From: a virus
Lineage: Duplodnaviria; Heunggongvirae; Uroviricota; Caudoviricetes
DNA: 37,200 nucleotides
Strand: one strand, 5' to 3'
Virus record (IMG/VR): IMGVR_UViG_2526164668_000026
Below the pieces are notes generated by a model. That model saw only the letters and a list, made by a program, of their open reading frames with translations. It was not told where the DNA came from and searched no databases. Shown here one piece after another: positions 9,258-36,131 of the stretch; position 1 is the stretch's first letter, and each line of letters opens with the position of its first letter. The position numbers and the translations under genes are program-made.

Positions 9258-10622
9258 TTATTTTATAGTCATATTAGCTATTGATGTGGAAATATTAAAG
9301 ATATGGTTATATTCAAACGCAAAATCACCTTCTATACGCTGAACATAACTTCCCTTTTCATTACGTAATAGTTTTAATGTTTCTTTATCGATGTAATAAT
9401 AATCCAATAGTTCTTTAAGCAATTTAATTTCCGTCTTTGATGAAAAATAATCAGATTTTATATTAAGTAATTCTAATATCTCTTCAGAAGACATTTCCTT
9501 CTTAAGTAGTCGATTTAACATATCTGGAGAAGTTACTTTCAAGAAACAAACCAATGCTAATGCAATCATATAATAATTATCATCATTATTCGCTATACAC
9601 GTATGATTATCCACTACAAGCATAGTTGAAATACATCGTTCAACTTCTCGCAGCGAGCAATTATTGGTTTCAATCAAGCATGATAAGACTCTTACAAAAG
9701 CACCATCTGTATTAATACCTAGAGAGTGATTCTGTTGTAGAGTTTTTTTAATATACGTTGTAATCGTTGTTTTGTTAGATGCTTGTAACACCATAGAGTC
9801 ATACATATTTATTTTGGGCAAAGAAAACCAATAATGAATAAATTTATTCAAGTACAGACCAGTATTGATATCACCATATTTATATGCAATTCCCTTTTCA
9901 AATTGCTCTCGATTCATTACCAATAAGAAAACCATACCTTTCACAGAAAAAAGATGCTTAATTTTTTCCAATAGCTCTAGAGAATAATCTGGGCGGGCTC
10001 GATCAAGTTCATCAATAATAATCAAGGTTTTTCTCTTTGTATTTGTATATATTTCTTCTAAAGCTTTTTTAAAGTCAGCAATTGAGTTTTTTTCCTGCTC
10101 CATGGATTTTATTTTCTCTTCAACAAAAGACTCTAACTCACTATTAATGGAATCGCTAACTGTTTTTCCTGCCTCATCAAGAGCAGAACCATTCACAACA
10201 CCTGCTGTCAGGGTTGTAATAGCTACCTTTGCACCTCCGATTAATATTTTTGCACCTATTTTCTTACCAGTTTTAATAATGCGATCAGCTACATCTTCGG
10301 CCTCTACTCCTCTGTGTTTTAGTAAATTATATAGTTCAGATGATATTGAAATAAATGGATCTGATTGATAATCATTTTCAAATGCATCGAAATAAACAAC
10401 ATCTATATATTCACTATTAGTTAATTCTAATTCTGATTTTAACATCTTAACAAATGATGTTTTACCGCTACCCCATATATCATCTAACGCAAAAACCAAA
10501 TTTGAGTCAGGAGCATTAATAATAAGCCGTATCATTTGATCATATAATGTCTTACGATTAAATATGTCAGATGTAATATCAAAACCATTCTCAAAACCAT
10601 TCTGATTAGTAGTTATATTCAT
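9258..10622 (-). CDS. KAP-family P-loop NTPase (candidate stand-alone anti-phage defence gene)
   Basis: 454-aa ORF; Walker A DDIWGSGKTSF, Walker B LIIIDELDRA, hydrophobic Gly-rich insert (IGAKILIGGAKVAITTLTAGVV) between them as in KAP NTPases; GGAG RBS 5 nt upstream of ATG; sits in a visibly AT-rich island at the position of P2 tin/old. Confidence 0.8.
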   Translation of the reverse strand: MNITTNQNGFENGFDITSDIFNRKTLYDQMIRLIINAPDSNLVFALDDIWGSGKTSFVKMLKSELELTNSEYIDVVYFDAFENDYQSDPFISISSELYNLLKHRGVEAEDVADRIIKTGKKIGAKILIGGAKVAITTLTAGVVNGSALDEAGKTVSDSINSELESFVEEKIKSMEQEKNSIADFKKALEEIYTNTKRKTLIIIDELDRARPDYSLELLEKIKHLFSVKGMVFLLVMNREQFEKGIAYKYGDINTGLYLNKFIHYWFSLPKINMYDSMVLQASNKTTITTYIKKTLQQNHSLGINTDGAFVRVLSCLIETNNCSLREVERCISTMLVVDNHTCIANNDDNYYMIALALVCFLKVTSPDMLNRLLKKEMSSEEILELLNIKSDYFSSKTEIKLLKELLDYYYIDKETLKLLRNEKGSYVQRIEGDFAFEYNHIFNISTSIANMTIK

Positions 10623-14273: not shown

Positions 14274-14427
14274 TGCTCCCCCTGAGTAATTACAGGAAGA
14301 TTACCCGCGCGCGAAACTGTTCTCCTTAACCCCCTGTTCTGGCCGTTTTCTTACAACAAAAGCCCTTTGTATCAGCCTGTTACGCTTTGCCATCATGACT
14401 GAAGAACCAGTCAGAGGGGCAAAAACT

Positions 14428-15264
14428 ATGGCTAATGAAAAAAAGACATCCCGCAAAAAGTTTCGCGTGGCTGTCTCCGGATCAACTGTTGATGGCCGTG
14501 AAATCAGTCCGGTGCATCTGCGTGAAGCCGCCGAGAACTTCAACCCGGATGTTTACGCTGCCCGCGTGAACGTTGAGCACTATCTCTCGCCATGCCCGTC
14601 AAGCGAATTTTCCGCAATGGGCGATGTCACCGCACTGAGTACGGAAGACATTACGGAAGGTCCGCTGGCCGGACGTACTGCGCTGTATGCAGAAATCGAA
14701 CCGACCGAGCGCATGAAGCAGCTTGTCGCTGACGGCAAGAAAATCTATTCCAGTATCGAACTGCACCCGCAGTTCTCAGTTAACGGGCGCGCCTATCTGG
14801 TCGGGCTGGCGATGACCGACACCCCGGCAAGCCTGGGCACTGAGCGCCTGAAATTCACGGCACAGCAACGTCAGGCAGTAATGACGTTCAACAGTGTCCA
14901 GGGTGAAGCACCGCTTATCTCCGAAGCCATCGAGTCTGAAATCATCGAAATGGCAGAACAACGCCAGGAAGAAGGCACCCAGTGGTTTAACCGCGTAATG
15001 GGGATTATTGGTCGTGGCCGCAAAGCGGATGACGCCAGTTTCTCCCGTATTCAGGAAGCGCTGGAAGGCGTCGCAACGTCACAGGCCGACATTATCGACC
15101 GTTTTAATGTGCTGGAAACCCGCCATCAGCAGGACCGCCAGAAAATCACGTCACTGACCACAGAGCTGACGGCACTGAAGGAAAAACTGCGCACGCAGGA
15201 CGGCGATCCGCAGAACCGCTTCACCGCAACGGGCGCAGCCTCCGACCAGCTGGCTGACTTCTGA
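14428..15264 (+). CDS. O: Capsid scaffolding protein (P2 gpO-like)
   Basis: Start chosen at ATG 14428 (MANEKKTSRKKFRVAVSGSTVDGREISP.., GAGGGG RBS upstream), matching the gpO N-terminal pattern; the ORF-track start at 14395 is probably too early. Confidence 0.85.
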   Translation: MANEKKTSRKKFRVAVSGSTVDGREISPVHLREAAENFNPDVYAARVNVEHYLSPCPSSEFSAMGDVTALSTEDITEGPLAGRTALYAEIEPTERMKQLVADGKKIYSSIELHPQFSVNGRAYLVGLAMTDTPASLGTERLKFTAQQRQAVMTFNSVQGEAPLISEAIESEIIEMAEQRQEEGTQWFNRVMGIIGRGRKADDASFSRIQEALEGVATSQADIIDRFNVLETRHQQDRQKITSLTTELTALKEKLRTQDGDPQNRFTATGAASDQLADF

Positions 15265-22685: not shown

Positions 22686-24914
22686 ATGAGTACCACAACA
22701 CGAAAATTTAAAACCGTTATCACCGATACGGGTGCAAAAAAATTAGCTCAGGCAGCCGCGCCAGATGGTAAGCCTGTCCGCCTGACTCATATGGCCGTGG
22801 GCGACGGTGGCGGCACGTTGCCCACACCAGACAGTAAGCAGACCCGTCTGGTGCATGAGGTGTGGCGACATACTGTTAATCGCGTCATCCTGGACGCAAC
22901 ACATCAGAACCGCATTATTGCGGAGCTGGTTATTCCTCCTGAAACGGGCGGATTCTGGATCCGGGAAATTGGTGTATTTGATGAGCACGGCGATTTAATC
23001 GCGGTGGGCAATACTGCCGAAAGTTACAAACCAACCGTTGCCGAGGGGTCCGGACGTGCACAAACATTTCGCACCATTCTGACCGTATCCAGCACTGCCA
23101 CCGTGGCGCTTACCGTGGATAACACCATGGTGATGGCCACAGTGGATTACGTGGATGACAAACTGAAAGAGCATGAACAGTCACGACGTCACCCGGACGC
23201 CTCGCTGACCGCAAAAGGCTTTGTTCAACTCAGTAGCGCCACTAACAGCGTGTCTGAAACGCAGGCTGCAACGCCGAAAGCAGTAAAGGCCGCGTATGAT
23301 CTTGCTAACGGTAAATATACTGCGCAGGATGCCAGCACGACGCGAAAAGGCCTTGTCCAGCTCAGTAGCGCCACCAACAGCACGTCTGAAACGCAGGCTG
23401 CAACGCCGAAAGCAGTAAAGGCCGCGTATGACCTTGCTAACGCAAAATATACCGCTCAGGACGCTACGACGGCACAAAAAGGGATAGTCCAGCTCAGTAG
23501 TGCCACCAACAGCACGTCTGAAACACTGGCCGCGACATCGAAAGCGGTTAAGGCGGTAATGGATGAAACGAACAAGAAAGCGCCCTTAAACAGTCCTGCG
23601 TTGACCGGAACGCCAACAACGCCAACTGCGCGACAGGGAACGAATAATACCCAAATCGCAAGCACGGCTTTCGTTATGGCTGCGATTGCCGCCCTTGTAG
23701 ATTCGTCACCTGACGCACTGAATACGCTGAACGAGTTAGCGGCGGCGCTGGGAAACGACCCGAATTTTGCGACCACCATGACTAACGCGCTTGCGGGTAA
23801 GCAACCGAAAGATGCCACCCTGACGGCGCTGGCCGGGCTTGCTACTGCGGCAGACAAGTTTCCGTATTTTACGGGGAATGATGTCGCCAGCCTGGCAACC
23901 CTGACAAAAGTCGGGCGGGATATTCTTGCGAAATCGACCGTTGCCGCCGTTATCGAATACCTCGGTTTACAAGAAACGGTAAATCAGGCTTCTGGCGCAT
24001 TACAGAAAAACCAGAACGGCGCAGATATTCCAGGAAAAGATACCTTCACAAAAAATATTGGTGCATGTCGCGCTTTTCACAGTGCTATTAGTACAGGGGC
24101 AGGGAACTGGACAACGGCACAATTGATTGAATGGCTGGATTCTCAAGGGGCATTCAATCACCCATACTGGATGTGCAAATGTTCATGGTCATACGGCAAT
24201 AATAAAATTATTACCGATACTGGCTGTGGAACTATTCATCTTGCAGGTTGCGTTATTGAGGTTATGGGTAATAAAGGTGCCATGACCATCCGTGTAACAA
24301 CACCAAGCACTTCCACCGGAGGCGGCATCACTAACGCTCAATTCACTTATATTAATCATGGTGATGCTTATGCTCCTGGCTGGCGAAGAGACTACAACAC
24401 GAAAAACCAGCAGCCTGCATTTGCTTTAGGGCAAACAGGAAGCAGGGTTGCAAATGATAAAGCTGTTGGCTGGAACTGGAATAGCGGCGTTTATGATGCA
24501 GATATCAGTGGCGCATCGACATTAATCCTCCACTTTAATATGAATGCGGGGAGTTGCCCTGCTGTACAGTTCCGCGTGAATTATAAAAACGGCGGTATCT
24601 TTTATCGTTCAGCGCGTGATGGTTATGGCTTTGAAGCTAACTGGTCAGAGTTTTACACCACAACCCGCAAACCCTCTGCGGGGGATGTTGGTGCATATAC
24701 GCAGGCAGAATGTAACTCAAGGTTTATTACAGGTATTCGCCTGGGCGGTCTGTCATCTGTTCAGACATGGAATGGTCCCGGCTGGTCTGACAGGTCAGGT
24801 TATGTCGTTACAGGTTCAGTTAACGGAAACCGTGATGAATTAATTGATACAACACAGGCAAGGCCAATTCAGTATTGCATTAATGGAACGTGGTATAACG
24901 CGGGGAGTATTTAA
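22686..24914 (+). CDS. H: Tail fibre protein (P2 gpH-like); C-terminal third lies inside the invertible segment
   Basis: 742-aa ORF; three tandem ~44-aa fibre repeats; reads across the left crossover site at 23950-23975; followed by the assembly chaperone gene. Confidence 0.9.
23217..23585 (+). repeat. Three tandem ~132-bp coding repeats within H
   Basis: Units start at 23217, 23349 and 23481 (ggc[tc]ttgt[tc]ca[ag]ctcagtagcgcca...); encode [11 protein letters not shown].SET.AAT.KAVKA... Confidence 0.85.
23950..23975. promoter_or_regulatory. Left crossover site of the invertible segment (gix/cix/hix-like)
   Basis: ttatcgaatacc-tc-ggtttacaagaa is an imperfect 12-2-12 dyad and the inverted partner of the site at 27009-27034; it starts an ~85-bp inverted repeat (23950-24037 vs 26947-27034). 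Confidence 0.7.
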
Positions 24915-24916
24915 TC

Positions 24917-25450
24917 ATGATGCACTTAAAAAACATTACTGCTGGCAATCCTAAAACGAAAGAACAATACCAGCTAACAAAGCAATTTAACATCAAATGG
25001 CTTTATTCAGATGATGGAAAAAACTGGTATGAGGAACAAAAGAACTTTCAGCCTGATACGTTGAAAATGGTCTATGACCGTAACGGCGTTATTATTTGTA
25101 TTGAAAAGGATGTTTCAGCAATTAATCCAGAAGGCGCAAGCGTCGTTGAGGTTCCTGATATTACAGCAAATCGCCGGGCTGATATTTCGGGTAAATGGAT
25201 GTTCAAAGATGGCGTAGTGGTAAAGCGAACTTATACCGAGGAAGAGCAGAGGCAGCAGGCGGAAAATGAAAAGCAAAGCCTGCTACAGCTCGTCAGGGAT
25301 AAAGCCCAGCTATGGGACTCACAGCTACGGCTGGGCATCATTTCCGACGAGAATAAACAAAAATTAACCGAGTGGATGCTCTATGCGCAGAAAGTCGAAT
25401 CTACAGACACTTCCAGCCTGCCAGTAACGTTTCCCGAACAACCAGAATGA
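24917..25450 (+). CDS. G: Tail fibre assembly chaperone (P2 gpG-like), active orientation
   Basis: 177-aa ORF directly after H; N-terminus [24 protein letters not shown] nearly identical to the convergent minus-strand paralogue. Confidence 0.85.
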
Positions 25451-25477
25451 GGCAAGGCCCGCTATCGGGCCTTAATT

Positions 25478-26005
25478 TTACTCTGGTTTTTGTGGCCATT
25501 CTGGCTTTGCCGTATCCACACGGCTGACCAGAACACTGTAGCGTTCCCATGCTTCCAGTCGTGTGCGCTCCTCGTCTGTTGCCATATTCAGCCTGACAGC
25601 GCGTTCCAGCGGCTGGATGACTGATTCAGCTTCGGAAAGCAATGCGGCCTTTTGTAATTCGGCCTGTTGTTGCTGTTCGTCTGCCGTATAAATCCGTTTA
25701 ACTACAGCTCCATCCTTAAACATCCACTTACCGGAATCATCAGCGCGGCGGTTGGCTGTAATATCGGGAACCTCAACGACGCTAAAACCTTCAGGGTTAA
25801 GCGTGGAGGCATCTCTAGTGATGGCGACAATAATATTATTTGCATCGTAAACAATCTTTATTGTGTCTGGCTGAAAGTTTTTCACTTCCTCATACCAGTT
25901 TTTTTCGTCCTCGGAGTAAAGCCAGATGACTCCGTACTTCTTTGTTAACTCATACTGTTCCAGTGTTTTAGCGTTACCCGCTTTTATGTTCTTTAAGTGC
26001 ATCAT
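25478..26005 (-). CDS. Alternative tail fibre assembly chaperone (G'), in the invertible segment
   Basis: 175-aa ORF, N-terminus [24 protein letters not shown]; convergent with G. Confidence 0.8.
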
Positions 26006-26006
26006 A

Positions 26007-26984
26007 TTAAACGCTCGCTACATTATACCAAGTGCCATTTATATACTTTTGAACGGGTCTGTAATAAACGCCCGCTATATTATCGGCAGAATTGGACCCT
26101 GTATCCTGAACATTAATACCAGACAATACATGACCTGACGGGCACTGGAAATTCCATGTTTGCCAGTTGTTCACTCCATAATATTGCTGTGAACCAAGTC
26201 GAACATCTTTCACATAACGGGAATCAAAGTTACCGTAATCTGAGGGATTAACACGACCTGTAATATTTATGGTTTTATTACTTTGAATACTGCCGGAGAC
26301 AAAGCGCATAACATGGACGTTATTAGCATAAACATCCAGATACCCGTCGCCATTTTGTTTAAATCCCGTGTCATTATCACCCAAAACAATCGAGTTACCA
26401 CCAAGAGCACTGGATGTTCCGATGCCCAGTGCACCATTCAATTGACCGCCAGATAATGACAACGCCCCAACCTCAGCAGCAGTCGGTTTAATGTGCGAAC
26501 TGTAAATTACATATACAGTTCCATCTGTCAGGCCTGTTGGTTTATTCGCTGTATAAGTTGGTGATGTATGAATCGTTACGCTGGCGTTACTGGTATAATC
26601 CCACTGAATATTAACACCTGTGGCGTAATTACCTATTTCAACATAAACATCATAGGTATCACCGGATGTATTCACCCATGCAAAATTAGTAAATCCAACC
26701 GAGGTCCGTCGCCATAATGCACCAGTAATACCTTTTGGATTTCCATTTCCGGCACGCAGAACCAGCTCAGAGATGCCTGCTTGATGCGGGGAGCCAACGT
26801 TAAACCCTGCGCCACCAATCAGGCTTATGTAAACCACGGAACTGGCTTGTGGCATTGTTACAGTTGCCAGTTTGAACCATCCTGCACCACCATTAAAAGA
26901 CATGGTTGTTGAATTTGTTGCTCCAATATTGCGCAGGAATAATCTTTTATCAGGAATATCTGCGCCATTCTGGTTTTTCTGCAA
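26007..26984 (-). CDS. Alternative tail fibre C-terminal cassette (fused to H only after inversion)
   Basis: 325-aa ORF beginning [11 protein letters not shown].., the same peptide that H reads just inside the left crossover site (..[15 protein letters not shown]..); no upstream gene on its strand. Confidence 0.75.
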
Positions 26985-27008
26985 CGCACCAGAAGCCTGA
27001 TTTACCGT

Positions 27009-27034
27009 TTCCTGTAAACCGAGGTTTTAGATAA
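27009..27034. promoter_or_regulatory. Right crossover site of the invertible segment (gix-like)
   Basis: ttcctgtaaacc-ga-ggttttagataa, 12-2-12 dyad, inverted relative to the 23950-23975 site; 55 bp upstream of the invertase start. Confidence 0.75.
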
Positions 27035-27088
27035 TGGCCGTTTCTGACCTGCATGGCATGATTTACGCTTTTGGACGGGAGATTCAGC

Positions 27089-27676
27089 GTGCTGATTGGC
27101 TATGTAAGGGTATCAACAAATGACCAGAATACAGACCTGCAACGAAACGCTCTTGTTTGTGCAGGATGTGAACAAATATTTGAAGATAAATTAAGCGGGA
27201 CAAAGACAGACCGACCGGGATTAAAACGCGCTTTAAAGCGTCTTCAAAAAGGTGACACGCTGGTTGTCTGGAAACTGGATCGCCTCGGGCGAAGCATGAA
27301 ACATCTGATTTCTCTCGTCGGGGAACTACGGGAGCGAGGGATTAATTTTCGCAGTCTGACCGACAGCATAGATACATCTTCTCCAATGGGGCGTTTTTTC
27401 TTCCACGTGATGGGTGCCCTGGCTGAAATGGAACGTGAATTAATTGTTGAACGTACACTGGCCGGACTGGCAGCAGCGCGCGCACGGGGGCGCACAGGCG
27501 GACGTCGCCCGAAGCTGACAAAAGAACAGCATGAGCAAATAGCAAGGCTGATTAAAAACGGTCACGACAGAAAACAACTGGCAATAATTTACGGCATTGG
27601 TACATCGACGATTTATCGTTACCACCCCGCAGGAGAATCAAGCGGAACAATAGAGAAGAGTCAGAAAACAAAATAA
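27089..27676 (+). CDS. Serine DNA invertase (Pin/Gin/Cin/Hin family)
   Basis: Protein from GTG 27089 begins MLIGYVRVSTNDQNTDLQRNAL.. (catalytic Ser in VRVSTNDQ), C-terminal HTH (GIGTSTIYRY); beside the invertible segment. The ORF-track start 27071 is probably too early. Confidence 0.9.
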   Translation: MLIGYVRVSTNDQNTDLQRNALVCAGCEQIFEDKLSGTKTDRPGLKRALKRLQKGDTLVVWKLDRLGRSMKHLISLVGELRERGINFRSLTDSIDTSSPMGRFFFHVMGALAEMERELIVERTLAGLAAARARGRTGGRRPKLTKEQHEQIARLIKNGHDRKQLAIIYGIGTSTIYRYHPAGESSGTIEKSQKTK

Positions 27677-27678
27677 CC

Positions 27679-27706
27679 GCTAATCTGACCATTAGCGGTT
27701 TTTGTG
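27679..27706. terminator. Bidirectional terminator between the convergent invertase and gpU genes
   Basis: Hairpin ccgctaat-ctgacc-attagcgg flanked by T-runs on both strands. Confidence 0.5.
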
Positions 27707-27711
27707 TTAAA

Positions 27712-28206
27712 TCAGAACAGCCCTTTAACTGAACTGGCCGCGCTGTTAAGAGATGATGTCACCTTATCTTTGAAGCCGGACAGCATATCGCTGAACGATG
27801 AGGATTGCAGGCGCTCCCGCAAATCCTCATCACAGCGTTCAAGGGTCAGTGAAAATTCTATCTTTTTCGCCTTACCGTAGCGATCAAACTCGGAACGGGT
27901 CGTATTCGTTCCGGTCAGGACATACATGCCGTAAATCTGCCCGACACCATCAATCAGAGGCCAGGGGCGTCCTGTATATGCCTGCGTGGTCAGCAACGAA
28001 AGCGACACTTCGCCACCTGTAATTTCAGGATAAAGCACACCAGAAAGAACGATGCGATCATCGCCTGCCCCGATATACTGCCAGCTTGCTGAACGGTTAA
28101 CGCGTTCATTTTTCACATGCCGCCAGCTTTTGTTTTGCTGTAACTGCTGATGCGGCAACGTGCGCAGCTCAAAAACAAACATGCCGTAGATCATCATCAT
28201 GGCCAT
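27712..28206 (-). CDS. U: Tail protein U (P2 gpU-like)
   Basis: 164-aa ORF; MAMMMIYGMFVFELRT..VLSGVLYPEITGGEVSL.. matches the gpU pattern; directly downstream of the tape-measure gene. Confidence 0.8.
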   Translation of the reverse strand: MAMMMIYGMFVFELRTLPHQQLQQNKSWRHVKNERVNRSASWQYIGAGDDRIVLSGVLYPEITGGEVSLSLLTTQAYTGRPWPLIDGVGQIYGMYVLTGTNTTRSEFDRYGKAKKIEFSLTLERCDEDLRERLQSSSFSDMLSGFKDKVTSSLNSAASSVKGLF

Positions 28207-28212
28207 GACTCC

Positions 28213-31056
28213 TCAATCTTTATCGTAAAAACTGCCACGCCCGGCACGGGCGCGCCGTTCCATTTCTGCCCTGACCATTTCACCGACCAGTTTCGCCAGT
28301 TCGCGGGGATTCTGCGTAACAACGTTATGCAGATGAACATGAATTTCACCACCAAATCCGGAGGCAACAGGCTCCCGGTTACGGGAAGTTACAGGAACTG
28401 ATGCCACTGGAGATCGTATGGCCTCCGCCACCGGGCGGGAGCTGGCCGCAACAACAGGGACCAGCGCCGGAGGCAGCGGAGCCGGGACCACGGGGGTGAT
28501 ATTAATTGCGGGGGCAGGCTTACTGACCTGCGCAATCTTCCGCTCCTGCCACTCCCCACGAACAGCAAGTGCGCGGGGCAGGTTCTTAAAGACAATATCG
28601 CCGGGGCCAATGCGTTTTTTCGTCTCATCAACCAGCTTACCTGTGTTATCAGCAATTTTGCTGAGTCTGCGCAGCGTACCGGTATTGCTGTCTGTGAGCG
28701 GTTTATTGTCTTTGGGGTTATCACCTCCGGTGCCATTGCCATTTTCCACAGGCTTCGGCGGATTGATTTTCGCCAGGTCCCCCTGAAGCAAGGCAACCTT
28801 GTCCTGAAGAATGGCCGCACGCTGTGCGTCTTCGATTTTCTTGCGCGCCCTTTCCGCTTCATCCGGAAGGACGCCAAGTTTTTCAAGTATCCACGCCAGC
28901 GTATCCAGCAGCATTTTTGCAGGTGTCAGAACAAGCTGTAACGCACCGCCAAGAACGTTACCGAATATCTCGCCAGCACTGGTACATTTATCCAGCGTTT
29001 CCTTGCTGGACTCCATCGGTGACAGCAGCGATTTAAACCAGTTAAACACCTGGCTGATCCCGCTCCCAATTGCGTCAAAAACAGGACCAAACCGTTCAAA
29101 GGTTTCGCGCAACGGGGTCAGCCTTTCCATAATCCCGCTGAACACCCCGGCAAAAAATGCCCTGATGGGATCCCAGTATTTCCAGATAAGAACGGCAGCT
29201 CCGGCAAGCGCAGCCACGATAAGACCAACCGGACTGAACAGCGCCCCGATAGTGCCTCCCAGCAAAGAAACAGAACCCGTCACCATTCCCCACAGCGCAG
29301 GCAACACCCTGATGACATTCATTGACCGGGTAAGAATGTCGAAACCAAGACGCAAGGTGGCCAGCTTCCCGTAAAGCACCCCAATAACCAGCGACAACGA
29401 GCCAATCGTTGCAGTCATTGCCAGCAACGCACCGCCTGCTATCAGTAGCTGGCGCGTCAGTACCGGATGGGCCTGCGCCAGCGAGGTGATTTTTTCAAGC
29501 ACCCGCGTGAGCCACTGCGTGACAGAACGCAGCGGACCGTCAACCAGATCACTGATGCGAATACGAAGACCTTCCCATGCGCTGTCGAGATTTTTCAGGT
29601 CCCCATCAAGATTATCGGCCATTACTTTTGCAACGCGATCGGCCTCTCCCCTTGCCCCCTGCAATTCTCTGGTCAGTTTTTGCAGCTCTCCTGAACCAGC
29701 CGCCGCAACAAGCGTCTGCAAACCAACGAACGCCTCTTCTCCGGCGATGTCCTTGAAGAAGGAGACCTGGTCCACCTGTCCGTATTTTTGTGTCGCCTTA
29801 TAGAGATCAAGCAGCACATCCTCCATCGGGCGCATTTTGCCTCTGGCGTCAGCAACTGACACCCCCAGCTCTTTCAGCGCATCAGCCGCAGCTTTTGGCG
29901 GTGATGCAAGGCGGGACAGACTTGCGCGCATGGCCGTACCAGCATCGCTTCCACGAAGGCCATTATTGGCAAGCATCCCGGCCATGGCCGCCGCTTCTTC
30001 AAGACTGATACCAAGTTTTGCGGCAACCGGACCGGTATACTTCATGGTTTCGCCCAGCGCGCGTAAATCAGTATTGGTCCGGGTGAATGCCGCTGTCAGC
30101 GTATCGCCAACCCGGTCCATTTGATCGGCTGTCAGGTTGAACTGTGTGAGGATATTGGAGCCTATATCCGCCGTCTCGCCGAGTTCGACGCCACCTGCCA
30201 GCGCCATATTAAGAACACCGGGCAATGCGGCCTGAATGGCCTGCGGAGTAAAACCAGCCATTGCCAGAAAGCTCTGCCCACTGGCGGCATCACTCGCAGT
30301 AAACTGTGTTTCAGAGCCAAGTTTTAACGCCTGCTCACGCAGCGCCTTAAACTGCGGGCTGTTTTTGTCGATTCGCGTCAGTGCCTGAACACGGGACATC
30401 TCTTTGCCGAACCCGATCGCAGGCTGCAAAAAACGCCCGGCAGCATAGCCGCCAGCCGCTGCAGCACCAATTGCCAGCGCACCACCTGTTTTCAGTTTTC
30501 CCGCGGTTTCCTGCGCGCGCGAATACCGCTCACGCGCCCGCGTTACACGCGCAAGCGCCTGCCGTTCGCGTTCAAGCTGGTTGTTGTACTGTTCGGTGCG
30601 TCTGATGGCCTGCTGGATGGTGTTATCGCTGCCTGTCAGGGAAATGCCGTGGCGTTTCAGCTCTCCGCCAAGTTCCCGCATTTTCTGAATTTCCCGTGTG
30701 CGCGATTCATTCAGGCGTTCAAGCCGGGTGCTTAACTGCTGCATCAGCTTTTGTTGTTTTTCGCTGAGCACTGTACCCGTGCGTTGTAACTGATTAAGGG
30801 CGTTAAGCTGGCGTCGTGCTTTCACGATACCCGCATCCGCTTTACTGACAGCGTCGCGGGCGAGCTCAAATGAACGCGCCTGACGCTCGAGATTTTTGAT
30901 CGCCCCCTGCGTTCGCTGGATGGAGTCACCAAACTGCCCCATCAGGCGGCGGGCGTTTTCGGCAGGCCGGGTCAGCCTGTCAACGGCGCTGAAAGCGACC
31001 CGGATATCAAGAGTCTTCATTGTCTGCACTCCCGCTGCGAAGTGCCGCCCGCTCAC
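28213..31056 (-). CDS. T: Tail tape measure protein (P2 gpT-like)
   Basis: 947-aa ORF, coiled-coil-rich N-terminal half, Gly/Ala-rich hydrophobic central region; follows E/E'. Confidence 0.85.
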   Translation of the reverse strand: MSGRHFAAGVQTMKTLDIRVAFSAVDRLTRPAENARRLMGQFGDSIQRTQGAIKNLERQARSFELARDAVSKADAGIVKARRQLNALNQLQRTGTVLSEKQQKLMQQLSTRLERLNESRTREIQKMRELGGELKRHGISLTGSDNTIQQAIRRTEQYNNQLERERQALARVTRARERYSRAQETAGKLKTGGALAIGAAAAGGYAAGRFLQPAIGFGKEMSRVQALTRIDKNSPQFKALREQALKLGSETQFTASDAASGQSFLAMAGFTPQAIQAALPGVLNMALAGGVELGETADIGSNILTQFNLTADQMDRVGDTLTAAFTRTNTDLRALGETMKYTGPVAAKLGISLEEAAAMAGMLANNGLRGSDAGTAMRASLSRLASPPKAAADALKELGVSVADARGKMRPMEDVLLDLYKATQKYGQVDQVSFFKDIAGEEAFVGLQTLVAAAGSGELQKLTRELQGARGEADRVAKVMADNLDGDLKNLDSAWEGLRIRISDLVDGPLRSVTQWLTRVLEKITSLAQAHPVLTRQLLIAGGALLAMTATIGSLSLVIGVLYGKLATLRLGFDILTRSMNVIRVLPALWGMVTGSVSLLGGTIGALFSPVGLIVAALAGAAVLIWKYWDPIRAFFAGVFSGIMERLTPLRETFERFGPVFDAIGSGISQVFNWFKSLLSPMESSKETLDKCTSAGEIFGNVLGGALQLVLTPAKMLLDTLAWILEKLGVLPDEAERARKKIEDAQRAAILQDKVALLQGDLAKINPPKPVENGNGTGGDNPKDNKPLTDSNTGTLRRLSKIADNTGKLVDETKKRIGPGDIVFKNLPRALAVRGEWQERKIAQVSKPAPAINITPVVPAPLPPALVPVVAASSRPVAEAIRSPVASVPVTSRNREPVASGFGGEIHVHLHNVVTQNPRELAKLVGEMVRAEMERRARAGRGSFYDKD

Positions 31057-31536
31057 GCCAGCTAACCACTTCGCCGGGCGTCATCATGAAGATTTCGGCG
31101 GGCGACCAGTTAAAAATAACGGCAATATCTGCCACAAAGTCTTCTATGTGCTCAAAGCACACAACCGTGATCAGGCTTCCGTCGCCTGTTCGTTCTTCCC
31201 GCCAGAGTCCGCACCGCTCAAAAAATTTACGGCAACCACACATAACTGAATAAAGTCACAGGATGCCATTTTTTTGATCGTCACTTCATCCAGTCGCGGT
31301 GATGTCACGCGTGACAGCAGCGTAAACATGGATTCCGCTTTCAGATTCAGCACATCAGACAGCGACAAATCTCGCAGAGATCCAGCCTGCTCAATAGCTC
31401 CGGTGATCTCCACATACGTGATTTTTTCGCCGCCTCGCTCAATTGGTTGGGTAAGTTTTACGCCACGCTCACTGGTTTCTTTCACAGTGTCAGCAACGAC
31501 CGTGTTTTCGTTATCGATGTTTTTCGTCTCTTTCAT
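31007..31536 (-). CDS. E: Tail assembly chaperone E and its -1 frameshift extension E+E' (gpE ends at 31171; frameshifted product ends at 31007)
   Basis: gpE ORF 31171..31536 (AGGAG RBS); slippery heptamer T-TTT-TTG in the E frame (plus-strand caaaaaa at 31219-31225); the -1 frame continues ..NFFERCGLWREERTGDG.. to a stop at 31007. Confidence 0.8.
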
Positions 31537-31590
31537 CAGGAAACTCCTTTCAGTCAGAGGCGACGCACTGCGCCGCCTGCATATTACTTA

Positions 31591-32103
31591 TCAGCCAAGC
31601 CCAAGCGCGGAACGGATGCGATCGGGCACAATGTCCTTGCCGTCCTTCCGGTAAATGAAGTTCAGCAGGTCAATCTCCCACAACGGGCGATCGTTAACAC
31701 TCAGCTTGTAGTAGGTGTTTTTAATGGCGTAAGTGTGTGATGTGGCTTCGCCCTGTTTGGCTTCCCCCATATCAATTTCCGTCACACGTCCGCGCATTTC
31801 GACTTCATACAGGTCGCTTTCTGCATCGGTGTAGTATTCACCCGCAAAACGCAGCAGCGTGCCGTCAATCGTGCCGCCATACTTAAGGAACAGCTCACGA
31901 ACTGCGCCCCCCATGACAAAGCTCGCATCAAGCGCGGAGTCGTCCAGACCGAGATCAATACTTACCGCACCCATCATGCCGCCCCCCCGGTAGCTGTCGG
32001 TTTTGCGCGTCAGTTTGGGCAGAGTGACGGACGTCACCTTACCCACTTCGTTTTCACCATCCACAAACAGCGTAAAAAAGCGAAGATGTTTTGGCACAGC
32101 CAT
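31591..32103 (-). CDS. FII: Tail tube protein (P2 gpFII-like)
   Basis: 170-aa ORF; start overlaps the sheath stop. Confidence 0.85.
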   Translation of the reverse strand: MAVPKHLRFFTLFVDGENEVGKVTSVTLPKLTRKTDSYRGGGMMGAVSIDLGLDDSALDASFVMGGAVRELFLKYGGTIDGTLLRFAGEYYTDAESDLYEVEMRGRVTEIDMGEAKQGEATSHTYAIKNTYYKLSVNDRPLWEIDLLNFIYRKDGKDIVPDRIRSALGLG

Positions 32104-33287
32104 CAGGCACCTCCCAGCACCGCAAATGCGGGTTCAAAGTATTCATCAGTAAACGTCTGGTAAAGCTCCATGTCTTCCAGTGGCGGAACGGGCGTATATT
32201 TGTAGCGAATACGCACACGCCCCTGACGTAAATCCGTGGTGCTGTTATCCACCACGTCATACCAGCACTCCGCACCAATCAGTTTCCCGGCAGTAACCAG
32301 TGAATCCAGTTTTGCCCTGATGGCACTGATAACATCCTTCACGTTCGCAGGCGTCAGTGGACTGTCGATGGTTTCAAACTGCGCTTCCGCAATTGAATCA
32401 GCCAGCACCTGTGCGGTTCGGGTATACACCTCAAAGATGTAGGCGTTCGTTTCCGGTGTGCGGTTGCCCCAGAAGCGGAACCCGTTGCGACGAATAATGG
32501 TCGTGATTTCTTTGTTGTTGAGGCTGTTGGCATCGCTGTCTTCGGCCTGCAACGACCAGAACACATGCCTCGACATCCCCAGCACATTTTTAACCGGAAC
32601 GTTGGACAGTGATTTGTGCCACCCCTGCTCATGGTCAATGTACGCACGAAGGCCGCACGCATAGGCAGGCGCGGGGAACGTTTCGTTTTTGCCAGTTTTC
32701 GGGTTGTAGGCGATGAAGTCCGGCCATAAGAGCATCACCTCACGTTCGTTGAATTTCTGGCGGTAGGTAATCGCCTCTGCCATCGTGTTACAGCCGTGAC
32801 ATGAGGCATACACAAACGCGCGCAGTTTACCCGCAATCACGCACAGGGATTTTGTTACCGCCTCCGTGTCCAGCTCCGGCGCGGCCAGAATACGCGGACG
32901 GTATCCGATGCTTTCATCCTGCTCTGCAACAAGCAGCGCATACATCCCCGTATAGCTGCCGTCAGATTCAGAACCACCGATAACCAGTTGATCCTGCGTT
33001 TTTCCGTCTTCTTCTTTGTGTTCAGCCACGCGAACGACGATCACCTTTGTGCTCACCTGGTCTGCGATGGCCTTAAGCGCACGATAAAGCGTCCCCGTTG
33101 TCCCGCATTTTCCCAGCACGTCATTGACGCGGGTCAGCAGTGTGGGCTTGTTCAGCGGGAACAGCTTCGCGTCCGCATCATCCGCCGTTGCCACGATACC
33201 GATAACACTGGAATCAACATCGTTAATCGCTGTTACCAGGTCGGTATTTTCCGTAACACGGGCACCATGAAAACGAGTTTCACTCAT
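32103..33287 (-). CDS. FI: Contractile tail sheath protein (P2 gpFI-like)
   Basis: 394-aa ORF, first gene of the leftward FI-FII-E-T-U block. Confidence 0.85.
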   Translation of the reverse strand: MSETRFHGARVTENTDLVTAINDVDSSVIGIVATADDADAKLFPLNKPTLLTRVNDVLGKCGTTGTLYRALKAIADQVSTKVIVVRVAEHKEEDGKTQDQLVIGGSESDGSYTGMYALLVAEQDESIGYRPRILAAPELDTEAVTKSLCVIAGKLRAFVYASCHGCNTMAEAITYRQKFNEREVMLLWPDFIAYNPKTGKNETFPAPAYACGLRAYIDHEQGWHKSLSNVPVKNVLGMSRHVFWSLQAEDSDANSLNNKEITTIIRRNGFRFWGNRTPETNAYIFEVYTRTAQVLADSIAEAQFETIDSPLTPANVKDVISAIRAKLDSLVTAGKLIGAECWYDVVDNSTTDLRQGRVRIRYKYTPVPPLEDMELYQTFTDEYFEPAFAVLGGA

Positions 33288-33444
33288 AGCTTCAGCCCCT
33301 TGTATCCGTTAAATGATTCGGCAACAATCATCACCCACCACGCGCGTAATCTCACCCCTGCGCCGTTCTCCCGCCACGGCGACAACAAAAAGCAGTAACC
33401 CCCTCCGCACGCACATGCGACCATGCCGCACAGGGAGGGAACAG

Positions 33445-34554
33445 ATGACCGACACCACCATGCAATTGCTCAGTCAGGGCACAGACCCCGTGAAAATGCC
33501 GGATTTTGATATTCTCGCGGAGGGTAAAACGCTGTCAGGCGTGGCAGAGCGCCTGATGAGCCTGTCACTGACCGACAACCGGGGATTTGAAGCGGACCAG
33601 CTCACCATCACGCTGGATGATGCGGATGGTCAGTTGCAGCTACCGCCACGGGGCGCGCGCCTGACGGTTCTCATTGGCTGGAAAGGAGAACCGCTGACAG
33701 AAAAAGGCACTTACATTGTTGATGAAATCGCTCACGAAGGACCGCCGGACAGGCTGACTGTTTCAGCCAGAAGCGCAGATTTCCGGGATGAATTTAACGT
33801 TAAACGTGAGGTGTCCTGGCATGATGTGACCGTTGAGCGTGTGGTATCCGCCATCGCTCATCGGTATGGTCTGAAACCGCAAATCAGCGAAATGCTGATG
33901 GATATCGAAATCGACCACGCCGACCAGACCGAAGAAAGCGACATGTCCTTCCTTACGCGCATGGCGGAAATGCTGGGCGCAATCACCACGGTAAAAAGCG
34001 GTAATCTGTTATTCATCATGCCCGGCGGTGGCGTGAACGCACAGGGCCAGCCGTTGCCATCGTTCGCCATCACACGCAGTAGCGGCGATCGCCATCAGTT
34101 CCGCATTGCTGACCGCGAGGCGTATACGGGGGTACGCGCTTACTGGCTTGATCTTAATTACGGGAAAAAGAAAAAAGTCAGCGTGAAACGCCGCAAACCG
34201 CCACAACCGAAAAAAGAGAAAAGCAGCAGCCGTGAAGGTGATTATATGGAAGGCGCGGAAGGCAATGTGTTTGTGTTACGCAAGACTTATCAGAACGAGC
34301 AGGCAGCAAGACGCGCAGCGGCGGCAAAGTGGCAACAACTACAACGCGGAGCCGCATCATTCTCCATCACGCTGGCACGTGGACGAGCAGAACTCTACCC
34401 CGAAATGCATGGCACGGTAACAGGATTTAAAAGCGAGATTGATAATCAGGACTGGATTATTGCAAAAGCCGAGCACACCATTGATAACAGCGGCTTTACC
34501 ACGCAGCTTGAGCTTGAGGCAAAAATCCCGGAATGGATAGCGGAAACAGAGTGA
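33445..34554 (+). CDS. D: Late control/tail protein D (P2 gpD-like)
   Basis: Start chosen at ATG 33445 (GGGAGGGA RBS; MTDTTMQLLSQG..); the ORF-track start 33313 gives an unlikely N-terminal extension. Confidence 0.8.
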   Translation: MTDTTMQLLSQGTDPVKMPDFDILAEGKTLSGVAERLMSLSLTDNRGFEADQLTITLDDADGQLQLPPRGARLTVLIGWKGEPLTEKGTYIVDEIAHEGPPDRLTVSARSADFRDEFNVKREVSWHDVTVERVVSAIAHRYGLKPQISEMLMDIEIDHADQTEESDMSFLTRMAEMLGAITTVKSGNLLFIMPGGGVNAQGQPLPSFAITRSSGDRHQFRIADREAYTGVRAYWLDLNYGKKKKVSVKRRKPPQPKKEKSSSREGDYMEGAEGNVFVLRKTYQNEQAARRAAAAKWQQLQRGAASFSITLARGRAELYPEMHGTVTGFKSEIDNQDWIIAKAEHTIDNSGFTTQLELEAKIPEWIAETE

Positions 34555-34596
34555 GCAACTTAGAATAGCGGCAGCACCACGTTAAAGGAGGTCGCT

Positions 34597-34857
34597 ATGT
34601 TCCGTTGTCCGCTTTGTGGCGCATCTGCCCGTATCCGCACCAGTCGTCCGGAAAATGATTCAAACACCGTGCGGCAAAAGTATTACCAGTGTAACAACCT
34701 GGAATGCGGCGTATGCTTCTCAACACTGGAAGCTTTCCATAAATTCACATCGAAACACGCCTCCGGCGTTCACTCATCAGAAGGTATCCCGTGGCATGAG
34801 CTGCCAGCTTCACACAGGGGAAACAATCAGATGAGTTTGCCTTTACCTCAGAATTAA
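34597..34857 (+). CDS. ogr: Ogr/Delta-type zinc-finger late transcription activator
   Basis: MFRCPLCGASARIRTSR...YYQCNNLECG gives the C-x2-C...C-x4-C zinc-finger pattern; last phage gene, after D. Confidence 0.8.
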   Translation: MFRCPLCGASARIRTSRPENDSNTVRQKYYQCNNLECGVCFSTLEAFHKFTSKHASGVHSSEGIPWHELPASHRGNNQMSLPLPQN

Positions 34858-35046
34858 CAGGCAGAATTGCCGGAGTAACAAAAAAGCGATAGATTACGTG
34901 CGGGTGCCTTTCGGCTGATGGTCGGAGGGAATACCCGAAGGCCGGATGTGGAAAGGCCCCGGAAAACATTTCTGTTTAACCGAGGCCCTAACCCGTCAAC
35001 CTAGCAAGTGATAGGTTAGCGCCTCTCCAACAAAGGAGCAAGCGCT

Positions 35047-35187
35047 ATGTCGCAAAAATCGCTTACGGCCATCACGTTCTGCGTGACGGTAATCCTCATC
35101 ATCTGGATGCTGCACGGTTCGCTGTGTGAAATACGGATGAGCTTCTGGGGAGCGGAGTTTGCGGCGTTCTTACAGTGTAAGCAGTAA
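35047..35187 (+). CDS. Hok/Gef-family type I toxin (46 aa)
   Basis: MSQKSLTAITFCVTVILIIWMLHGSLCEIRMSFWGAEFAAFLQCKQ: one TM helix then the conserved SLCE..AAF..C motif; AAGGAG RBS; long structured leader upstream; terminator downstream. Confidence 0.7.
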   Translation: MSQKSLTAITFCVTVILIIWMLHGSLCEIRMSFWGAEFAAFLQCKQ

Positions 35188-35275
35188 GGAAACCGCGACG
35201 GGGAGGCAACTCCCCGTCAATCGGTTGCTAGGGTAAGGCCGATAAGGCACCCTATCTCATAGGCATGAATAACAA

Positions 35276-35308
35276 CCCCGCAGCGTAAAAACTGCGGGGT
35301 TTCTTTTT
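35276..35308 (+). terminator. Rho-independent terminator after the hok-like gene
   Basis: ccccgcag-cgtaaaaa-ctgcgggg followed by tttcttttt. Confidence 0.6.
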
Positions 35309-35376
35309 GGAACTCTCACTAGCTAGTGAGCCGTTAACTGCACATAATGCTCGCACAACAAATCAGTTAAAAGAGA

Positions 35377-35658
35377 TTACTCAGCATTCTCCTGCTTCCA
35401 TTGCCGGATCATTTCATCGGTAACATCACTTTCATAACATACCACGTCATACCCTCCAGTACGGCTATATGCACTGCGTCCACCACATCTACTACCATTC
35501 CTTGCATGATTATACGGACACGCACAATTGCCTGGATAAGATTCAATGGATTCTTTAATTATTTCTTTCTTGATCTGAGCATCTGACTTTCCTGTTGCTG
35601 CATACCCACTAAAAGATACCAAACAAAGGCAGATTGCCATTAATAAACCACATCGCAT
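35377..35658 (-). CDS. Hypothetical Cys-rich secreted protein
   Basis: ORF with signal-peptide-like N-terminus (MRCGLLMAICLCLVSFSGYA) and several Cys; start chosen at the internal Met of the longer ORF 35377..35772; weak RBS. Confidence 0.35.
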   Translation of the reverse strand: MRCGLLMAICLCLVSFSGYAATGKSDAQIKKEIIKESIESYPGNCACPYNHARNGSRCGGRSAYSRTGGYDVVCYESDVTDEMIRQWKQENAE

Positions 35659-36131
35659 ACCGATACACTCTATTACTAACCAATCATAGCCCACATCATA
35701 AAATCGAGATGAGGAGTACAACACCTTTAACAAGAAGGTGCCATCACGATAATATGCCGTGCAATTCATCAAAAAAAAGATCTATATCAAAGAGATAGAG
35801 TTATTATCAGTGCTGCAGACATCAGCATTCGAGGCAGCAGAAAGACAGTAAATCTAACGAATTTGTCTTTTTCTCAGGATGTTGTCAGATTAAAAAAGAT
35901 AGAGTAGCGCAGACACCTTTTGGTGGATGGTAGGAGGAAAAATGAAGTTGAGTGGGAAGATCCCAGAAAAAACTTTGGTTTAACCAAGGCCCTAGTTCAA
36001 TATGCGAAATGCAGATGAGTTGCAGGAGAGTTTTGCTTCACCCTTAGAGTTTAAACAGACGTGTACTATCATTATTTCTGCATATCGCCACACCATCGCC
36101 ACTTTACCGCCATTTAACAAAATACAAATAC

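Follow-up and report, generated by a model that had tools for sequence, protein, structure and literature searches.

In phages P2 and Fels-2, the tail genes are arranged in the order J-I-H-G-(cargo or invertase)-FI-FII-E-T-U-D-ogr and all run in one direction; an earlier note on the DNA studied here had described the P2 map, with FI-FII-E-T-U-D co-directional after G, correctly. Sheath, tube, tape measure and hub genes are likewise co-directional in more distant contractile-tail phages. The late promoters of P2 depend on the activator Ogr and on the C-terminal domain of the RNA polymerase alpha subunit, and carry a partial dyad, TGT-N12-ACA, near position −55, without a good −35 element.

A different layout is found in Escherichia phage P88 (NC_026014), the type species of Xuanwuvirus, and in its relatives phiSM (Shae_phiSM), Xuanwuvirus P884B11 and the E. 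coli phages 500465-2 and 520873. In this group, H, G, the inverted G'/H' and an invertase gene are accompanied by U-T-E'-E-FII-FI on the opposite strand, and by D and ogr, the last of which is unannotated in the P88 record. The layout can be read directly from public annotations, including that of the genus reference genome. Neither the inversion nor the gene orientation is mentioned in the searchable papers on P88, phiSM, SEN4 and P2-like phylogeny, and a paper on Xenorhabdus tailocins mentions inversion for fibre regions only. Here, we describe this arrangement in a complete P2-like prophage that makes up a stretch of 37,200 nt (the window), with tRNA-Leu(taa), tRNA-Cys, tRNA-Gly and a pgsA-like gene as its neighbours.

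The FI–U block and its flanks

Sequence comparison assigns the prophage to the P88-like phages of the genus Xuanwuvirus, family Peduoviridae, a placement drawn from tail-region identity and layout relative to P88. The window and P88 share 94.9% nucleotide identity over the aligning 72% of positions 24000–36000, a figure for the tail region, and their gene order and orientation there are identical. Over the 12-kb tail region, the window is 93–98% identical to P88, to phiSM of Citrobacter and to several phages of E. coli. Differences from the P88 group are limited to cargo and fibre details; in the window, D and ogr are not separated by cargo, and a KAP NTPase is encoded at 9258–10622. The genes of the block and its right flank are as follows.

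27712–28206, minus strand: U, gpU tail protein (PF06995, 1.5e-38), last gene of the inverted operon
28213–31056, minus strand: T, gpT tape measure (PF10145, 1.6e-56); the start is probably at 31020, the equivalent of the start in the P88 annotation
31007–31243, minus strand: E' frame, overlapping the 3' end of E; RefSeq has a "GpE family phage tail protein" at the equivalent place
31171–31536, minus strand: E, gpE tail assembly chaperone (tblastn identity 32% to P2 E and 96% to P88)
31591–32103, minus strand: FII, gpFII tail tube (PF04985, 7.5e-47)
32103–33287, minus strand: FI, gpFI tail sheath (PF04984, PF22671, PF17482), first gene of the inverted operon
33288–33444: FI–D spacer, 157 bp, from which FI and D diverge
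33445–34554, plus strand: D, gpD baseplate hub/late control D (PF05954, 2.1e-17), outside the block
34597–34857, plus strand: ogr, Ogr/Delta zinc-finger late activator (PF04606, 5.1e-14)

All six of FI, FII, T, U, D and the Ogr/Delta activator have Pfam matches above the gathering score, and these proteins are 33–49% identical to their P2 counterparts. E and the E' frame had no match in Pfam or NCBIfam, and we identify them because of their position, the tblastn matches to P2 and P88, and a slippery heptamer, TTTTTTG, at 31225–31219 within the E/E' overlap. From its sequence and place, the heptamer is the expected −1 frameshift site that would yield E and E'. A GGAGG ribosome-binding site precedes D. 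The open reading frames and Pfam matches agree, in coordinates and strands, with the earlier description of FI, FII, E/E', T and U on the minus strand and of H, G, D and ogr on the plus strand. Thus, the P2-type order, in which D directly follows U and all genes are co-directional with H and G, is not the order of the window.

At the left junction, U converges with an invertase gene on a common hairpin, just as the earlier note had described along with the divergence of FI and D over 157 bp.

27071–27676, plus strand: serine DNA invertase of the Gin/Pin/Cin type (PF00239, 1.5e-50; PF02796); the start in the P88 annotation is at the position equivalent to 27089
27675–27700, both strands: two-way intrinsic terminator hairpin at the left junction of the inverted block

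The hairpin, which lies between the invertase and U stop codons, has a 10-bp stem and is followed by a T-run on either strand; its folding energies on the two strands are −15.7 and −16.1 kcal/mol, with z scores of −4.6 and −3.9 relative to shuffled sequence. Such a two-way terminator would insulate the converging U and invertase/fibre transcripts from each other.

Distribution and origin of the inverted order

The inverted layout, with D diverging from FI, was present in P88, phiSM, SEN4, KSP20 and the Klebsiella phages Kp4848-1 and Kp4877-2. The sheath is 56% identical to the window's FI in Salmonella phage SEN4 (Senquatrovirus), 69% in Serratia phage KSP20 and about 70% in Klebsiella phages of Reipivirus and Reginaelenavirus, all of them inverted. 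Synteny with P2-like relatives thus identifies the inverted order as the norm in P88, SEN4, KSP20, phiSM, Reipivirus and Reginaelenavirus and, since the references of its lineage have the same orientation, the arrangement is unremarkable for a P88-like prophage, though different from that of P2. All 80 IMG/VR contigs retrieved by the sheath protein were inverted, the orientation of the block relative to D was the same in 74 of 74 nucleotide-level relatives, and 1102 of 5426 complete E. coli genomes (about a fifth) carry window positions 26400–35300 as one collinear match.

The earlier note had posed a choice between a fixed inversion and a mis-oriented assembly. An assembly error, in which the 5.6-kb block was wrongly oriented in this particular sequence, draws no support beyond the expectation raised by the P2 map, and it is contradicted by the identical orientation in P88, phiSM, the IMG/VR contigs and the E. 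coli genomes, by the same orientation in about 40 species-representative genomes of other genera, and by junctions that bear fitting signals, namely the two-way terminator and the divergent promoter spacer. We regard its probability as practically nil. Of the two readings, that of a fixed lineage inversion of about 5.6–5.7 kb therefore stands and that of mis-assembly falls, as the phages, IMG/VR contigs and E. coli genomes agree. The inverted block is genuine, and is neither a mis-assembly nor a recent flip.

The invertase gene abutting the block raises a separate question, which is bound up with the location of its recombination sites.

23950–23975, minus strand: left gix-like site, three mismatches to the gix 26-mer, inside the tail-fibre gene H and within the 93-nt inverted-repeat arm 23946–24038
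27009–27034, plus strand: right gix-like site, TTCCTGTAAACCGAGGTTTTAGATAA, one mismatch

This pair, which lies within 93-nt inverted repeats, bounds a fibre segment similar to the G segment of Mu and the C segment of P1, and not the FI–U block; the window contained no other gix-like 26-mer. The fibre cassette and invertase are 88–95% identical at the nucleotide level to the Mu G segment/Gin, P1 C segment/Cin and e14 Pin systems and, as in those systems, gix-like sites are present and both orientations occur among relatives, the fibre segment being flipped in six and unflipped in five close relatives. The system here acts on the fibre segment of about 3 kb only, and has no sites at the FI–U block. 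A relaxed gix search of the block junctions returned nothing convincing, the best 26-mers having 11–13 mismatches; the best junction match, 15 of 26 at 27708, was within background for the number of positions examined. Inverted repeats bracketing 27712–33287 were also not found, apart from short, low-identity chance pairs. The earlier statements that neither junction has a gix-like sequence and that a recent invertase-mediated event is unsupported are both borne out.

One could still suppose that the block is a second invertible segment, flipped now or recently by the neighbouring Gin/Pin-type enzyme, given that the invertase gene is intact and adjacent and that the enzyme is evidently active on the fibre segment. 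However, gix-like sites occur only at the fibre segment, no inverted repeat brackets the block, and block orientation is identical in all 74 close relatives, among which the fibre segment itself is found in both states. Moreover, many clade members lack any invertase and yet have the block in this orientation, and the same invertase cassette is present in co-directional phages, Fels-2 among them. Continuing inversion by this enzyme is thus exceedingly improbable, and the invertase is not responsible for the orientation of the FI–U block.

To place the inversion in the history of the group, we used a sheath alignment to scan bacterial genomes, each species being represented by one, and then determined the arrangement with tblastn. 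The surveyed loci comprise phage records and species-representative genomes. Where the sheath was at least 54% identical to that of the window, 48 of 48 loci were inverted. They are spread over more than 20 genera of Enterobacterales, including Salmonella, Citrobacter, Enterobacter, Kosakonia, Symbiopectobacterium, Mixta, Erwinia, Trabulsiella, Klebsiella, Raoultella, Brenneria, Pantoea, Serratia, Pectobacterium, Yokenella, Providencia, Photorhabdus, Morganella, Xenorhabdus, Yersinia and Dryocola. By contrast, the loci with sheath identity of 52% or less were co-directional without exception (40 of 40), and these include P2, Fels-2 and loci of the hosts Pseudomonas, Acinetobacter and Burkholderiales. 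The inverted set was monophyletic in trees of both D, which lies outside the block, and FI, which lies inside it, and no tip in either tree had a nearest neighbour of the opposite arrangement; both trees were built by neighbour joining, without bootstrapping, and were rooted at the midpoint. That the inverted loci are monophyletic points to one old inversion, and the simplest reading is a single ancient in-place inversion that became fixed in a deep branch of Peduoviridae from Enterobacterales.

Two other histories were weighed. The block could be a foreign tail module that was gained in the opposite orientation by illegitimate recombination; phage genomes are mosaic, and the adjoining fibre/invertase cassette, which is about 90% identical to those of Mu and P1 at the nucleotide level, has clearly been exchanged horizontally. 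An imported module is nevertheless hard to reconcile with the similar divergence from P2 of genes inside the block (FI 47%, FII 42% and U 46% identical) and in its flanks (D 49%, J 54% and I 61%), with the recovery of the same clade by the D and FI trees, and with an FI promoter geometry (see below) like that of co-directional relatives. We consider this history quite improbable, with the qualification that a replacement from a close relative at the root of the clade looks identical to an inversion. Alternatively, the divergent FI/D order could be ancestral and the P2-type order derived, a polarity on which midpoint rooting alone is silent. The co-directional loci, however, are paraphyletic and come from Pseudomonadales, Burkholderiales and many Enterobacterales, whereas the inverted loci make up a single clade restricted to Enterobacterales. 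The more distant contractile-tail phages, with their sheath-to-hub genes in one direction, also speak against a divergent ancestor. Because it is paraphyletic and found over far more hosts, the co-directional order is most likely the ancestral one, and the reverse polarity is likewise quite improbable. We therefore proceed with the single in-place inversion of an originally co-directional block.

The FI–D spacer

The earlier note had pointed to the spacer at 33288–33444 as the place to look for an Ogr-type dyad. One is indeed present, with a −10-like hexamer on each side, and a longer motif that includes it recurs at one other place in the window.

33367–33384, centre 33375.5: Ogr-type dyad, here TCT-N12-ACA, which the alignment of clade spacers shows as a conserved TGT-N12-ACA; part of the motif GTTCT-N12-ACAACAAAA at 33365–33390
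33327–33332, minus strand: predicted −10 hexamer of the FI promoter (PF), GATGAT, 34 nt from the dyad, with a predicted start at about 33320
33419–33424, plus strand: predicted −10 hexamer of D, GACCAT, 34 nt from the dyad, with a predicted start at about 33431
14336–14361, plus strand: second exact GTTCT-N12-ACAACAAAA, in the divergent P–O (terminase–scaffold) spacer

An exact search of the window for TGT-N12-ACA had given no match in the FI–D spacer, because the left half-site here is TCT; the dyad emerged from aligning the spacers of relatives. TCT is found in the window and its nearer relatives and differs from the TGT of the P2 consensus, while a perfect TGT-N12-ACA is present in 27 of 94 distinct spacers of relatives. 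The two predicted starts are each 55.5 bp from the dyad centre. Both hexamers are weak matches to TATAAT, and a σ70 consensus scan of 33288–33444 found no promoter, a result that is consistent with activator dependence and uninformative alone.

The symmetry of the spacer is conserved. We compared 92 distinct spacers with the dyad, many of which come from close relatives, so that the counts are inflated by non-independence. A hexamer of the form xAxxxT is found at a distance of exactly 34 nt from the dyad in 85 of them towards FI and in 83 towards D; at any other offset it occurs in at most 6, except for offset 37 on the FI side (51). The 34-nt pattern also holds across genus-level GTDB loci, and three Providencia loci had no dyad within one mismatch. 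As controls, we examined co-directional loci, in which the FI-side hexamer was present in 16 of 21 and a hexamer on the mirror (upstream) side in 1 of 21. Upstream of FI, the distance between dyad and start codon is 75–88 bp in the inverted clade and 78–85 bp in the co-directional clade. On this basis, two mirror-image late promoters with one common activator site are predicted in the FI–D spacer.

These comparisons bear differently on two proposals of the earlier note. That D has its own promoter is supported by the gene arrangement, as D starts after a 157-bp spacer in the window and abuts U, or lies within a few tens of bases of it, in most co-directional loci. The idea that FI is transcribed from a new late promoter, by contrast, does not hold, since the dyad distance and the 34-bp spacing to the −10 hexamer are alike in both clades. 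Because FI promoter geometry is the same in the two clades, the ancestral FI promoter appears to have moved with the block, and only the D-side element would be derived. The FI operon of the window and that of P2 and Fels-2 thus share their gene set, the E/E' slippery site, an Ogr-family activator, the 34-nt spacing from dyad to −10 hexamer and the distance of about 80–88 bp from dyad to FI start codon. In P2 and Fels-2, however, the operon is co-directional with the fibre genes, and D directly follows U and has no promoter of its own, whereas the window has FI–U inverted and D detached with an apparent mirror-image promoter, the proteins being 42–49% identical.

A precedent for such a spacer is found within the same genomes. 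The spacer between the divergent P and O genes of P2-like phages (about 154 bp in the window and 173 bp in P2) has one central Ogr-type dyad with −10-like hexamers 34–35 nt out on both sides. In P2, a single near-dyad lies at the centre of the O–P spacer, and an xAxxxT hexamer is found 34 nt from it in either direction; in the window, the P–O site is likewise flanked by −10-like hexamers on both sides, and its extended motif is that of the FI–D spacer. Exact copies of this 14-base motif occur in the window only in these two spacers. The P–O pair is ancestral to all P2-like phages and the FI–D pair is found only in the inverted clade, which suggests that the two-way late promoter is a native design of P2-like phages that was duplicated by the inversion. 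In E. coli, one dyad-symmetric CRP site midway between two outward-facing promoters can serve both. CRP belongs to a different activator family, and for Ogr the corresponding activation of divergent promoters from a single site is suggested by sequence geometry.

We propose that a segment comprising the FI late promoter, the Ogr-binding dyad and FI-FII-E/E'-T-U was inverted once in the ancestor of the clade. One breakpoint would lie between the end of the fibre/cargo module and the end of U, and the other in the stretch that separates the dyad from the start of D. Once inverted, the FI operon would retain its own promoter, and D, formerly read through from U, would find itself beyond the same dyad-symmetric activator site, where a mirror-image −10 element 34 bp from the dyad would serve it. 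Both divergent promoters would then depend for activation on a single Ogr site, centred about 55.5 bp from either predicted start, in the manner of the P–O design. Ogr binding at the dyad, initiation at the two predicted starts and two-way activation are the parts of this scheme that we infer from sequence. As a whole, a single fixed inversion in which the FI promoter was retained and D gained a mirror promoter from the common Ogr site is, in our judgement, a likely explanation of the data. We lean only slightly towards the further proposition that the inversion created a second two-way Ogr-dependent promoter, for FI–U and D, and that the symmetry of the site is what let the inversion be tolerated and become fixed.

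Block orientation and regulation in P2-like phages

For the annotation of the window, these results have little effect; it is an unexceptional P88-like element whose tail genes have the usual order of the genus, with nothing to correct. For the family, the orientation of FI–U provides a simple rule that divides enterobacterial P2-like phages and tailocin-like loci into two deep lineages, with sheath identity to that of the window marking the division (at least 54% versus at most 52%). The rule may help in classification, and also in prophage annotation pipelines that assume the P2 order. The mirror-symmetric spacer offers a testable natural case of one activator site for two divergent late promoters, and illustrates how regulation may be retained through the inversion of an operon.

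Invertible tail-fibre segment

The tail-fibre region of the window carries a Mu G / P1 C-type invertible segment, bounded by 93-nt inverted-repeat arms within which gix-like sites lie:
23946–27038: invertible tail-fibre segment
25478–26005, minus strand: alternative assembly gene, within the segment
26007–26984, minus strand: alternative fibre C-terminus, within the segment

The nucleotide identity of this segment to its counterparts in Mu, D108, P1, P7 and SfMu was 88–95%. Both orientations occur among close relatives, with the segment unflipped in five and flipped in six.

Variable cargo positions

The position that corresponds to the old/tin cargo slot of P2, here with a homologue of replication gene A on one side and the portal gene on the other, is held by a gene of low GC content (~30%), which may have an anti-phage or accessory role:
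9258–10622, minus strand: KAP-family P-loop NTPase (PF07693, 1.8e-38)

The interval that separates the fibre assembly gene from U is a further variable slot, occupied by the invertase in the window and by a family-9 glycosyltransferase in strain M11. The D–ogr slot is also a site of variable cargo in relatives (L169, 9455–11038; L170, 8523–9593), where the encoded proteins include a GmrSD restriction endonuclease and PIN-domain, DUF3800 and YecA-family proteins; in the window it is 42 bp long (34555–34596) and lacks cargo. Beyond ogr, the annotations of P88 and of RefSeq genomes include a Hok/Gef (MokW-like) toxin gene at the place equivalent to ~35040–35180 (plus strand) of the window, and the interval before the tRNA-Leu attachment end includes an additional reading frame, for which a Pfam search returned no significant match:
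35377–35772, minus strand: ORF of 131 aa, with a hydrophobic stretch near its N-terminus

Putative late-promoter regions, ogr and the inverted clade

Xenorhabdus and Photorhabdus, genera from which the tailocins xenorhabdicin and photorhabdicin are known, have P2-type loci (L117–L124 and L113) that fall in the inverted clade, with D diverging from FI and a sheath 58–61% identical to that of the window.

For the scaffold gene O, which diverges from the terminase gene P, the probable start is the ATG at 14428, upstream of which GAGGGG is found, rather than 14395 as in the mechanical ORF list. With this start, the P–O spacer would be ~154 bp, close to the length of the FI–D spacer. Both of these predicted late-promoter regions have TCT instead of TGT as the left half of the putative Ogr dyad (33367–33369 and 14338–14340), and TCT is also present in a subclade of relatives (L090–L101, L007, L100 and L106). 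The ogr protein is far more diverged than the structural genes, at 44–57% identity versus 70–83%. The stronger divergence of ogr and the TCT half-site hint that the activator and its site co-vary.
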